Source: Escherichia phage vB_EcoM_DE17
Reading direction: 5' to 3' (one strand)
Length of the DNA: 64,000 nucleotides
Sequence record: OP595146.1
Part shown: piece by piece, positions 28,178 through 35,136 of the stretch
Numbering within the stretch: the stretch's first letter is position 1
Layout of the letters: each line of letters begins with the position of its first letter
Translations under genes and position numbers: made by a program
The notes under the pieces: generated by a model
Database searches by the model: none
Seen by the model: only the letters and a program-made list of their open reading frames with translations
Told to the model about the DNA's origin: nothing

Positions 28178-28238
28178 TTAGTATTGACAAGGTGCTCACG
28201 GAAGAGTACCTTATACTGTATCTTGTATAGGAGGTCAT

Positions 28239-28457
28239 ATGACACTTTCAGAGATTGAAGTTCAGTTGCAATGTGCTGGTTACTCTCAAAAAGAGATTGA
28301 AGGGATGTTTATCGTTCTTTGCAGTAGCTGTAGGAATTTGAAGGTAAACCCTGAAGTTCTACGTAGAGTCGATATCTTTATTGCTGGAGGCAAAATCGCA
28401 AAAGACAAGACAGGCTACTTAAAAGGTGAGCGTGTAAACATTGAGAGCTTATTATGA
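28239..28457 (+). CDS. hypothetical protein (paralogue of 28660..28872)
   Basis: 72 aa; C-terminus IFIAGGKIAKDKTGYLKGERVNIESL is near-identical to the neighbouring paralogue. Confidence 0.5.
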   Translation: MTLSEIEVQLQCAGYSQKEIEGMFIVLCSSCRNLKVNPEVLRRVDIFIAGGKIAKDKTGYLKGERVNIESLL

Positions 28458-28663
28458 GCCACCGTGGAAGAACCCATGCAGCGATGATGAAAGGTGCTTC
28501 AAAGGAGACTATCAAGAATCGTAAGCAGAAGTTGTTTGAGAGAATGAACAGGTTAATTGACAATTCATCTCTTTCAGGTTCTGAGAAAGTTTTCTTGAAA
28601 GGTAATCTGAAAAGCATTGCACAAGAACTTATTGACATTGAATATTGGAGACACCAAAAATGA
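28454..28663 (+). CDS. hypothetical basic protein
   Basis: 69-aa ORF between the two paralogues. Confidence 0.45.
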   Translation: MSHRGRTHAAMMKGASKETIKNRKQKLFERMNRLIDNSSLSGSEKVFLKGNLKSIAQELIDIEYWRHQK

Positions 28664-28872
28664 CACTTGCAGATGTTATCCAGCAACTTCACGACAATTG
28701 CTATACTCCAGAGTTGATTCAGGAAATGCTTATTGTAGTGATGCCTAGCAAGTTCGTAAAAGGTTTTAATCGTGACTCCTTAATGTCTGCGCATATCATT
28801 ATCGTTGACGGTAAGATTGCAAGGGACCGTACAGGAGTCCTTAAGGGTGAACGTATTAGTATTGACCTCTGA
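28660..28872 (+). CDS. hypothetical protein (paralogue of 28239..28457)
   Basis: C-terminus IIIVDGKIARDRTGVLKGERISIDL; start at ATG 28660 after GGAGA. Confidence 0.5.
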   Translation: MTLADVIQQLHDNCYTPELIQEMLIVVMPSKFVKGFNRDSLMSAHIIIVDGKIARDRTGVLKGERISIDL

Positions 28873-28891
28873 GTATTGGGGGGACATCAAA

Positions 28892-29047
28892 ATGAAACGC
28901 AAAGTAAAATTATTTAGTTTATATGGAAGAGTCGGTAAAGGTTTTGATTGGCAACTGCTACGTTCAGATGTTAAAAGCAATGAATTAGCACAGCTTATTA
29001 TAAACTATCGACGAACGTACAGAGAGGTAGAACATCGTGAACAGTAG
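28892..29047 (+). CDS. hypothetical small protein
   Basis: 51 aa from ATG 28892 (MKRKVKLFSLYGRVGKGFDWQ) with G-rich RBS. Confidence 0.35.
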   Translation: MKRKVKLFSLYGRVGKGFDWQLLRSDVKSNELAQLIINYRRTYREVEHREQ

Positions 29048-29060
29048 TAGGAGAAGTATT

Positions 29061-29297
29061 ATGTGGAAAGCAGTAATTGTGTTTGGTGTTATCTTTCTGT
29101 CTGGCTGTAACCCATCTTACGAGGACAAAAACGCTTCTTATAGCCTCCCACCAGAGATGCAAGATTGCAAAGTCTATAAGTTAAATGGGGATGCAATAAG
29201 CACAGATATTGTTGTTGTCAGATGTCCAAACTCTCAAACGACAACATCTTATAGATATGGTAAAAATAGCCAATCACACACTACGGTTATTGAGTGA
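29061..29297 (+). CDS. small lipoprotein
   Basis: MWKAVIVFGVIFLSGC: hydrophobic signal plus lipobox LSGC; AGGAGA RBS upstream. Confidence 0.5.
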   Translation: MWKAVIVFGVIFLSGCNPSYEDKNASYSLPPEMQDCKVYKLNGDAISTDIVVVRCPNSQTTTSYRYGKNSQSHTTVIE

Positions 29298-29307
29298 GGT
29301 TTTTACG

Positions 29308-29514
29308 ATGCAGGTCTTAATAAACTATATCTACTGTTATGATGTTGTTCACTCCACTACAACGGTAGCTCAACGTAACCCAATCGTCCCACGAGAGGGT
29401 GAGTTGGTTAGAATCGAGGGTTGGACTTACACTGTGGAAAGCATCATTCATAAGTTTGATGTTGCTGGTGATGTTCAAGTTATTGACGTAGAGATTGGTG
29501 GTAAGAGAAAATGA
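29308..29514 (+). CDS. hypothetical protein
   Basis: 68 aa from ATG 29308. Confidence 0.4.
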   Translation: MQVLINYIYCYDVVHSTTTVAQRNPIVPREGELVRIEGWTYTVESIIHKFDVAGDVQVIDVEIGGKRK

Positions 29515-29714
29515 CTGTAGAAGATAAATTTAAGAACGCAGTTCTTACAGAAGATGGTGAGCTTGAAACATTCATTCTTCGTGTTGATGGTAAGCTATTC
29601 CGGTGTCGTTGTGGGTCAAACTGTTTTCACAAACCTGATAACACAAAGTTAGACATATACGAGTGTAATAACTGTGGGGTAAGGTTCTTAGGTAAGATTA
29701 AGGATATGCAATGA
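29511..29714 (+). CDS. zinc-ribbon protein (paralogue of 30039..30230)
   Basis: FRCRCGSNCFHKPD...YECNNCG Cys4 pattern shared with paralogue. Confidence 0.5.
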   Translation: MTVEDKFKNAVLTEDGELETFILRVDGKLFRCRCGSNCFHKPDNTKLDIYECNNCGVRFLGKIKDMQ

Positions 29715-29977
29715 AGATAACTCAAGAAATGAAGGGATTGTATGAGAAAAGTCTGGTAATCCCTCCAAAGACTAATACTAAGAAATTACTATTTGACTCT
29801 TGGTTAGATAGCTCTACATATGGGAAGTACTACCTAAAGGTTATTTCATTTGGTGAAAGACCAGAATCACCAGAATTTTATGAGAGCTACATAAATGAGC
29901 AAGATAAAAAATGTTTATGTTTCTACGAAAAACACATGGAATTAGTAAATTCAATTAATCACGAAAGAGAGCTTTGA
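29711..29977 (+). CDS. hypothetical protein
   Basis: 88-aa ORF. Confidence 0.45.
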   Translation: MKITQEMKGLYEKSLVIPPKTNTKKLLFDSWLDSSTYGKYYLKVISFGERPESPEFYESYINEQDKKCLCFYEKHMELVNSINHEREL

Positions 29978-30038
29978 TGGTTGTGCTTGGCACTACTTCT
30001 ACTCAAAAGGTTGCATAGCTTGTGAGGCAAGAGATAAA

Positions 30039-30230
30039 ATGAACAAAGAAGATAAACATAAAAATGCTGTACGAACTCCTGATGGAAAGGTTCAATCCTT
30101 CATCCTTACAGTTGGTGGAAAGCCATTTCGTTGCCACTGCGGAGCAAACTGTTTTCATAAACCAGATAAAAATGACTTAGAGCTTTACGCATGTAATGCT
30201 TGCAATACTTGGTATCACTCAGAGGAATAA
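30039..30230 (+). CDS. zinc-ribbon protein (paralogue of 29511..29714)
   Basis: FRCHCGANCFHKPD...YACNACN; same N-terminal KHKNAV pattern. Confidence 0.5.
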   Translation: MNKEDKHKNAVRTPDGKVQSFILTVGGKPFRCHCGANCFHKPDKNDLELYACNACNTWYHSEE

Positions 30231-30231
30231 A

Positions 30232-31335
30232 ATGACAATTCTGTACAAACAAAATAAAGATAACTCTTTTAACGTCTGGTCATGCGTTGCTGTAGGTGAC
30301 AAAGTTATTACAACCTACGGTAAAGAAAATGGCAAGATGATGTTTGAAGAGTATACAGCAGAACCTAAAAACATCGGTAAAAAGAACGAGCGTAACGCTG
30401 AACAGCAAGCTCTCTTTGAAGTCGCTGCTAAGTATAAAAAGCAAGTTGACCGCAAAGGTTATGCTTACACAAAAGAATCTGCACAGAATACTGAGAAGGT
30501 AGGTGTGCAGCTTGCTCATGATGCTGCAAAGGTTAGTCATGCAAAGTATCTGAAGTTCCCTGCTGATGCTCAACCGAAACTTGATGGTGTCCGTTGTAGG
30601 ATTTCAAGGCACTTAAGTATTGGCAGTGTATTCACAGCATACTCTCGTGAAAATACTGTTTACAAAATCCCTACTGAACTAATACCTGATATTATGGCAA
30701 TGTTAAGGCTCCACAAAGATGTTGATGAATTTGATGGAGAGATTTATGCTCATGGGTGGGACTTAGAAGATATTGTCTCTATGATTAAAAATGAAGACAA
30801 TCCTGACCGTCATCTACTTAAGTTTTACTGGTATGATATCTGTGACAGTACTAAGACGTGGCCTGAGCGTAGAGATATTATTGAGACTTCACCATTGAAT
30901 GACTTTAGAGACGGCTGTAAAGTTGTTCCTGTTAAGTCTCGTCGTGTAAATTCTTGGGAAGAGTTTGATGAAGCTCATGATAAGTGGGTTGAAGCTAAGT
31001 TTGAAGGTGCAATGTACCGTTCAATCTCTGAAGACTCCTTCTATGAGTGCTGTCACCGTTCATACTTCTTGATTAAGCACAAGAAGATGCACACTGAAGA
31101 GTTTAAAGTGACTGGTGTAAAGACTGATAAGCGTGGTCATGGCAAGTTCGTTGTAGAGACTCTTCCTAACGTCTTTGTAGATGTCTCATGGAAGACTACT
31201 CATGAGAAGAAACAGTATCTTGCTGAGCATCCTGAAGAGTTTATTGGGAAGCCTTTAACGGTTCAGTTCCAGAAGATGACTCGTAAGGGTTCTTTACAGT
31301 TCCCTGTTGGGCTAGTTATCAGGGATTACGAATAA
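30232..31335 (+). CDS. ATP-dependent DNA ligase
   Basis: Adenylation motif I KLDGVR; size typical of small phage ligases; start at ATG 30232. Confidence 0.75.
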   Translation: MTILYKQNKDNSFNVWSCVAVGDKVITTYGKENGKMMFEEYTAEPKNIGKKNERNAEQQALFEVAAKYKKQVDRKGYAYTKESAQNTEKVGVQLAHDAAKVSHAKYLKFPADAQPKLDGVRCRISRHLSIGSVFTAYSRENTVYKIPTELIPDIMAMLRLHKDVDEFDGEIYAHGWDLEDIVSMIKNEDNPDRHLLKFYWYDICDSTKTWPERRDIIETSPLNDFRDGCKVVPVKSRRVNSWEEFDEAHDKWVEAKFEGAMYRSISEDSFYECCHRSYFLIKHKKMHTEEFKVTGVKTDKRGHGKFVVETLPNVFVDVSWKTTHEKKQYLAEHPEEFIGKPLTVQFQKMTRKGSLQFPVGLVIRDYE

Positions 31336-31341
31336 AAGTTG

Positions 31342-31369
31342 TTGACATAGAAAATTTGGTGAGTATACT
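31342..31369 (+). promoter_or_regulatory. strong sigma70-like promoter
   Basis: TTGACA-N16-TATACT on plus strand right after ligase stop; -10 overlaps inverted repeat ggtgagta...tactcacc. Confidence 0.55.
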
Positions 31370-35100: not shown

Positions 35101-35109
35101 AACAAAAAA

Positions 35110-35129
35110 GGCTCCCGTAAAAAGGAGCC
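35110..35129. terminator. bidirectional intrinsic terminator at convergent gene junction
   Basis: GGCTCC-cgtaaaaa-GGAGCC flanked by an A-run on one side and a T-run on the other, so U-tracts on both strands; between thyA (+) and the membrane coiled-coil gene (-). Confidence 0.65.
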
Positions 35130-35136
35130 TTAAATT

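Follow-up and report, generated by a model that had tools for sequence, protein, structure and literature searches.

Two pairs of small genes in Escherichia phage vB_EcoM_DE17: probable old alleles side by side in an accessory region that recombines

We analysed a stretch of 64,000 nucleotides (the window) from Escherichia phage vB_EcoM_DE17 (OP595146.1), with a focus on nine small, tightly packed open reading frames (ORFs) on the + strand, which occupy positions 28239-30230 between the genes for DNA polymerase and DNA ligase. Four of these ORFs form two pairs, namely A1 and A2 of family A (phrog_4230) and two copies of family Z (phrog_5768), and each pair flanks a single-copy gene (Table 1). 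The window can be assigned to Felixounavirus (Ounavirinae), because Escherichia phage KEP2 is the closest match to its DNA (94.8% identity) and because 258 records of Felix-O1-like phages match it. Taken together, the data for this Felixounavirus are best explained if both pairs are old alleles that have become stacked in a recombining accessory region, and we regard this explanation as probable. An earlier sequence-only reading had proposed local duplication and divergence of small early genes, as is typical of host-takeover or anti-defence loci. In its fuller form, this view would imply recent tandem duplications and fast arms-race divergence into effectors with new specificities. We consider this unlikely, for reasons that are given below together with the observations in its favour.

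Old copies in a variable region

The paralogy itself is not in doubt. All four ORFs are present exactly where the sequence-only reading had placed them, on the + strand and with the peptides that it had quoted, and within each pair both proteins fit the same PHROG family over their whole length. The phrog_4230 profile detects A1 with E=7.4e-37 (positions 1-72 of 72) and A2 with E=5.6e-41 (positions 1-69 of 72), and the phrog_5768 profile detects the two Z copies over their full length, with E=2e-35 and 2e-40. A third copy of either family was not found within the window. A1 and A2 are identical at 28 of 69 residues (41%; E=4e-15 for this single comparison). Their C-termini had been described as near-identical; they are similar, but the quoted block is only ~62% identical, and the similarity extends over the full length of the proteins.

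The copies differ too much at the DNA level for a recent origin. Nucleotide identity between them is 52% for A and 63% for Z, and the proportion of synonymous differences (pS) reaches 0.73 (A) and 0.78 (Z), values that amount to saturation and mean that the split between the copies is old. Moreover, for each copy there are separate orthologues of more than 90% identity in phages of other genera or species. For A1, the identity is 92% to Silverhawkium gp37, the gene 3' of the polymerase gene in Mooglevirus, and for A2 it is 91% to Felix O1 ORF93; the Z copy at 29511..29714 has 8 phage records that are at least 90% identical, and the copy at 30039..30230 has 89. The gene X between A1 and A2 agrees fully with Felix O1 ORF94 (100% identity) and shares 94% identity with its Mooglevirus counterpart. 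Saturation and separate orthologues speak against the idea of local duplication and divergence. They suggest that the A and Z copies are anciently diverged, not the outcome of a fresh duplication in situ, and that the tandem state looks like stacked alleles, or like an old arrangement that was repeatedly lost. For the same reasons, a recent tandem amplification of the gene accordion type does not fit, since the copies are neither near-identical nor low in synonymous divergence. The likeness to the accordion of counter-defence genes, such as tifA in experimentally evolved T4 (PMC9391042), is that tandem phage genes are made and resolved by recombination at short homologies. Accordion copies, however, are recent, nearly identical and act through dosage, whereas the copies here are only 41-58% identical.

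Selection on the copies can be read from the proportion of nonsynonymous differences (pN), which between copies falls to 0.09 in the core of Z and to 0.23-0.24 in the C-terminal block of A. Outside these cores it rises to 0.45 in the C-terminus of Z and 0.58 in the middle of A. Such strong differences would suit an arms race, as would the adjacency of the copies among variable small genes that are framed by core genes. However, a comparison of the dN/dS type gave pN no higher than pS in every segment of both pairs, and among orthologues the pooled pN/pS is 0.11-0.27, indicating purifying selection, which holds the conserved blocks of both pairs in place.

The tandem state is rare. In tblastn searches of 50,697 phage records, family Z was found at 235 places in 225 records, which leaves only ~10 genomes with two copies, and family A at 285 places in 251 records, which leaves ~34; family A is restricted to Felixounavirus and Mooglevirus. 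The pairs are thus seldom kept in related phages, contrary to what the sequence-only reading would lead one to expect, and this weakens its account of duplication and divergence. We also mapped gene order in 35 loci, from Felix O1, EC6, JN01, KEP2, Silverhawkium, Moogle and 29 IMG/VR contigs. Between polymerase and ligase, these loci show four arrangements at the A locus (A1-X-A2 in 3, Moogle-like A1-X in 6, X-A2 in 14 and A2 alone in 12) and five at the Z locus. Z is variably present, as one might expect of an arms-race gene, and so are B and C; D occurs in all loci, and four loci have an extra 52-aa ORF between D and Z. At least one copy of family A is found in 35 of 35 loci, and family A therefore behaves like a lineage-specific near-core gene with an optional second copy, which is difficult to reconcile with the role of an accessory effector.

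The polymerase and ligase genes are the conserved left and right borders of this variation. Gene content varies between them in closely related genomes, as is typical of phage accessory regions, and the sequence comparisons show that 28239-30230 is a hypervariable accessory region between two core genes. It resembles the accessory regions described by Silas et al. (bioRxiv 10.1101/2023.04.06.535777), in which core genes likewise bracket small genes that vary in presence, order and alleles; here, the genomes that share the polymerase-ligase bracket are otherwise >85-95% identical. Several of the accessory genes of Silas et al. counter defences or trigger abortive infection in experiments. The motifs of the window are absent from the supplementary files of that study.

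Recombination at the Z locus and its possible part at the A locus

The paired copies act as recombination substrates. At the Z locus, the type phage Felix O1 carries a recombinant (hybrid) Z gene, the two parents of which stand side by side in relatives. The switch between the parental sequences lies inside CAAACTGTTTTCA (gene nt 107-119; window 29617-29629 and 30145-30157). The two Z genes share no longer exact run than this one, which encodes the conserved NCFH core.

At the A locus, the cassettes join at start codons, and a single conserved leader stands in front of them, directly 3' of the polymerase gene. The leader comprises a TTGACA box, a 9-bp hairpin (AAGGUGCUC/GAGUACCUU) in which one loop base is variable, and a strong ribosome-binding site (TAGGAGG). 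It is nearly invariant in ~30 relatives and always lies 5' of the first small gene, be that A1, X or A2. It occurs once in the window, its fold has a z of -1.9, and it may serve as a promoter, as a processing site or as a regulatory hairpin. We also considered whether an A1::A2 hybrid exists that would parallel the one at the Z locus, and rejected this candidate as unprovable, given that the same leader precedes A1, X or A2.

The tandem state would most likely arise, or be regenerated, by recombination between co-infecting relatives with different alleles, for example in a cross between a Moogle-type genome with the order pol-A1-X and a Felix-type genome with the order X-A2. The A1-X-A2 arrangement is explained equally well by an old arrangement with alternative losses and by recombination within the shared X (Moogle-type A1-X with Felix-type X-A2). 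Some points weigh against old alleles stacked in a recombining region. The Z hybrid could have formed by allelic recombination between single-copy genomes in a co-infection, and not by deletion inside a tandem genome. The direction of the events at the A locus cannot be proven either: with the junctions at gene starts and a shared leader in front of them, a hybrid of A1 and A2 would look the same as the simple gain or loss of a cassette. Finally, the census of 35 loci holds a few duplicate genomes (e.g. EC6 twice).

A further variable element borders the region. In 18 of the 35 loci, 540-590 bp are inserted 3' of the polymerase gene, and the Felix O1 annotation calls this insertion an HNH endonuclease; there it is ORF95 (L001 918-1421), between the polymerase gene and the leader. 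Every locus with a polymerase C-terminus no more than 80% identical to that of the window bears the insertion. We rejected the converse statement, that insertion-bearing relatives all have a diverged polymerase C-terminus, as some loci at 88-96% bear it too. The pattern points to an exchange of sequence, associated with homing, that would affect the 3' end of the polymerase gene. In EC6 (L002 / L033) the polymerase is annotated as three ORFs, and in several IMG/VR loci the C-terminal polymerase match begins 14 aa late, which hints that the polymerase gene of some relatives is interrupted by an insertion or intron-like element.

Table 1. Features of the polymerase-ligase interval in the window
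Feature	Position	Strand	Basis
DNA polymerase, family A, Felix O1 gp96 type, 909 aa	25448..28177	+	ORF; so annotated in Felix O1, Moogle, Silverhawkium
Leader element, ~52 nt	28184..28236	+	Nearly invariant in ~30 relatives
A1, 72 aa, phrog_4230, Mooglevirus-type allele of family A	28239..28457	+	ORF, profile match
X, 69 aa, phrog_5180, single-copy gene flanked by A1 and A2	28454..28663	+	ORF, profile match
A2, 70 aa, phrog_4230, Felixounavirus-type allele of family A	28660..28872	+	ORF, profile match
B, 51 aa, phrog_2381	28892-29047	+	ORF, profile match
C, 78 aa, putative lipoprotein, phrog_902	29061-29297	+	ORF, profile match
D, 68 aa, phrog_4427	29308-29514	+	ORF, profile match
Z family copy, phrog_5768	29511..29714	+	ORF, profile match
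E	29711-29977	+	ORF
Z family copy, phrog_5768	30039..30230	+	ORF, profile match
ATP-dependent DNA ligase	30232..31335	+	ORF; relatives annotated DNA ligase; 85-99% identical in 29 IMG/VR loci

Expression and possible roles of the small genes

It could be argued that the four paired ORFs are non-functional, and either arose by chance or are what is left of decaying genes in an intergenic spacer. At 63-72 aa they are very short, a characterised homologue is absent, and A1 is frameshifted in one relative. The genes can nevertheless be taken as real, because their orthologues keep the reading frames in other phages and because transcripts of Felix O1 homologues have been detected: a survey by reverse-transcription PCR found them for ORF89 (NP_944945, family Z) and ORF93 (NP_944952, the A2 orthologue), both hypothetical proteins of the type phage (PMC3185647, Table 3). 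The ORFs are intact in dozens of genomes, ATGA start/stop overlaps join most of the nine small ORFs, and ribosome-binding sites are present. With the low pN/pS among orthologues, a confident structural model of A and the conservation of the Z domain across hundreds of protein clusters (see below), a lack of function is scarcely credible. The frameshifted A1 is that of Escherichia phage JN01 (L003 740-959, 787-1119) and reflects either a pseudogene or a sequencing error; the opposite-strand “tail fiber protein” annotated over the A1 region of the same record is almost certainly a mis-annotation.

The Felix O1 survey also bears on timing. ORF88 (ligase), ORF89 (Z), ORF90 (D), ORF93 (A2) and ORF96 (polymerase) were all maximal at 25 min, a class that the authors term “middle” (PMC3185647, Table 3). 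By this table, the small genes belong to the middle genes of a replication module and not to the early genes, as had been assumed. A scan for sigma-70 promoters and terminators gave no enrichment over shuffled sequence and does not settle the timing of transcription. Two single sites may be mentioned, a near-consensus sigma-70-like site (TTGACA-16-TATACT) at 31342-31369, just 3' of the ligase gene, and a bidirectional terminator-like hairpin at 35108-35131, which ends the + strand block and corresponds to the Felix O1 terminators t79/t80.

As to function, the sequence-only reading had assigned none, and rightly so, in that no homology to any characterised protein was found. Scans of the nine small proteins with Pfam, NCBIfam and PADLOC returned nothing significant, and in PHROGs, Pfam, NCBIfam and PADLOC no protein of the window matched a known anti-defence, defence or host-takeover family, Lar and Tad2-like proteins included. 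Literature searches for the motifs, and for anti-defence or transcriptome work on Felixounavirus, likewise yielded nothing specific. An anti-defence role of A or Z is therefore conjecture. In the AlphaFold model of A1 (predicted local distance difference test score, pLDDT, 89), two helices at the N-terminus lead into a small mixed sheet. The PDB contains no structural neighbour of this model, and a Foldseek search of BFVD returned, apart from its own orthologue, only weak hits to phiEco32 and EP335 proteins that are themselves uncharacterised. Among the other small genes, C, which is patchy among relatives, has a lipoprotein-type signal peptide and a lipobox (VIFLSG|C), and its product could be a superinfection-exclusion-type lipoprotein encoded within the replication module.

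Family Z as a putative zinc ribbon

Family Z is far more widespread than family A. A profile search of 1.84 billion representative proteins returned 394 clusters (50% identity) at E up to 1e-3, with the consensus DG....F.....GK.FRC.CGCNVFHKPD......Y.CN.C. The sequence-only reading had seen a Cys4 core in Z. Four cysteines (C32, C34, C52 and C55) are indeed invariant in an alignment of 38 distant relatives and at least 80% conserved in 148 sequences, but the third cysteine of the quoted core (Cys38) is not conserved. The four form two conserved pairs (knuckles) ~15-20 residues apart, a spacing that would fit a Cys4 zinc ribbon. Sequence-profile searches of the PDB with three alignments gave only generic C2H2-knuckle noise, and there was no significant sequence-profile or structural similarity to the zinc ribbons of TFIIS_C, Rpb9 or TFS4.

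Among the best 148 hits, 60 are stand-alone proteins, and in 78 the Z domain forms the C-terminus and follows an additional N-terminal stretch of at least 25 aa, which varies greatly. Pfam matches identify a few of these partners as Lar, NUDIX, dATP/dGTP pyrophosphohydrolase, Tad2-like, RyR, DUF2934 and DUF7128, and two fusions were confirmed as continuous ORFs in jumbo-phage contigs. The restriction-alleviation proteins of the Lar family (PF14354) are, like Z, small cysteine-rich phage proteins, and in one distant relative a Lar domain is fused directly to the Z domain (P0043; jumbo-phage ORF in L053). The occasional fusions to Lar-like or Tad2-like domains would favour an arms-race role, but each of the known partners occurs only once among 87 multi-domain proteins.

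Z has no fixed genomic neighbour. It adjoins rIIB/NrdA.1-like/PseT in Kolesnikvirus phages of Erwinia, and a DNA methyltransferase and Sir2 in a Klebsiella phage. In Pseudomonas aeruginosa prophages it lies in an early operon between the repressor and Erf/RecT-YqaJ-SSB, an early accessory setting that again would suit an arms race, and large phages carry it within long arrays of small uncharacterised genes. The position of Z beside the ligase gene in the window could point to a role tied to ligase or DNA metabolism, as its neighbours elsewhere often act in DNA or nucleotide metabolism (methyltransferase, dCMP deaminase, PseT, Erf/RecT-SSB). Such a tie is nevertheless very doubtful, since Z is absent from 12 of the 35 loci, in which the ligase is 86-99% identical, since the Kolesnikvirus gene does not adjoin a ligase gene, and since a simple dosage effect would call for copies more alike than these two. 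We infer that Z is a small, mobile and dispensable putative zinc-binding module, which would act while DNA metabolism is under way and most plausibly serves for binding or targeting. The bolder proposal, that it is a widespread and previously undescribed zinc-ribbon targeting module of phages and prophages, which docks diverse effector domains (Lar-like, NUDIX, dATP/dGTP pyrophosphohydrolase, Tad2-like and many uncharacterised ones) onto one shared host or phage target, seems quite improbable to us at present.

The locus is a well-documented instance of a known feature of phage genomes, and as such descriptive and ordinary for phage genomics. It nevertheless shows cleanly, in a natural setting, how recombination at very short conserved cores stacks small accessory genes, hybridises them and removes them. 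It also brings up two uncharacterised families that are worth experiments: family A, a confidently folded 70-aa protein that is kept by every Felixounavirus and Mooglevirus sampled, and the putative zinc-ribbon domain, which has no Pfam model, spans ~400 clusters, is often C-terminal and is the most promising lead. As Felix-O1-like phages serve in the typing and biocontrol of Salmonella and E. coli, genes that affect their host range would be of practical value.
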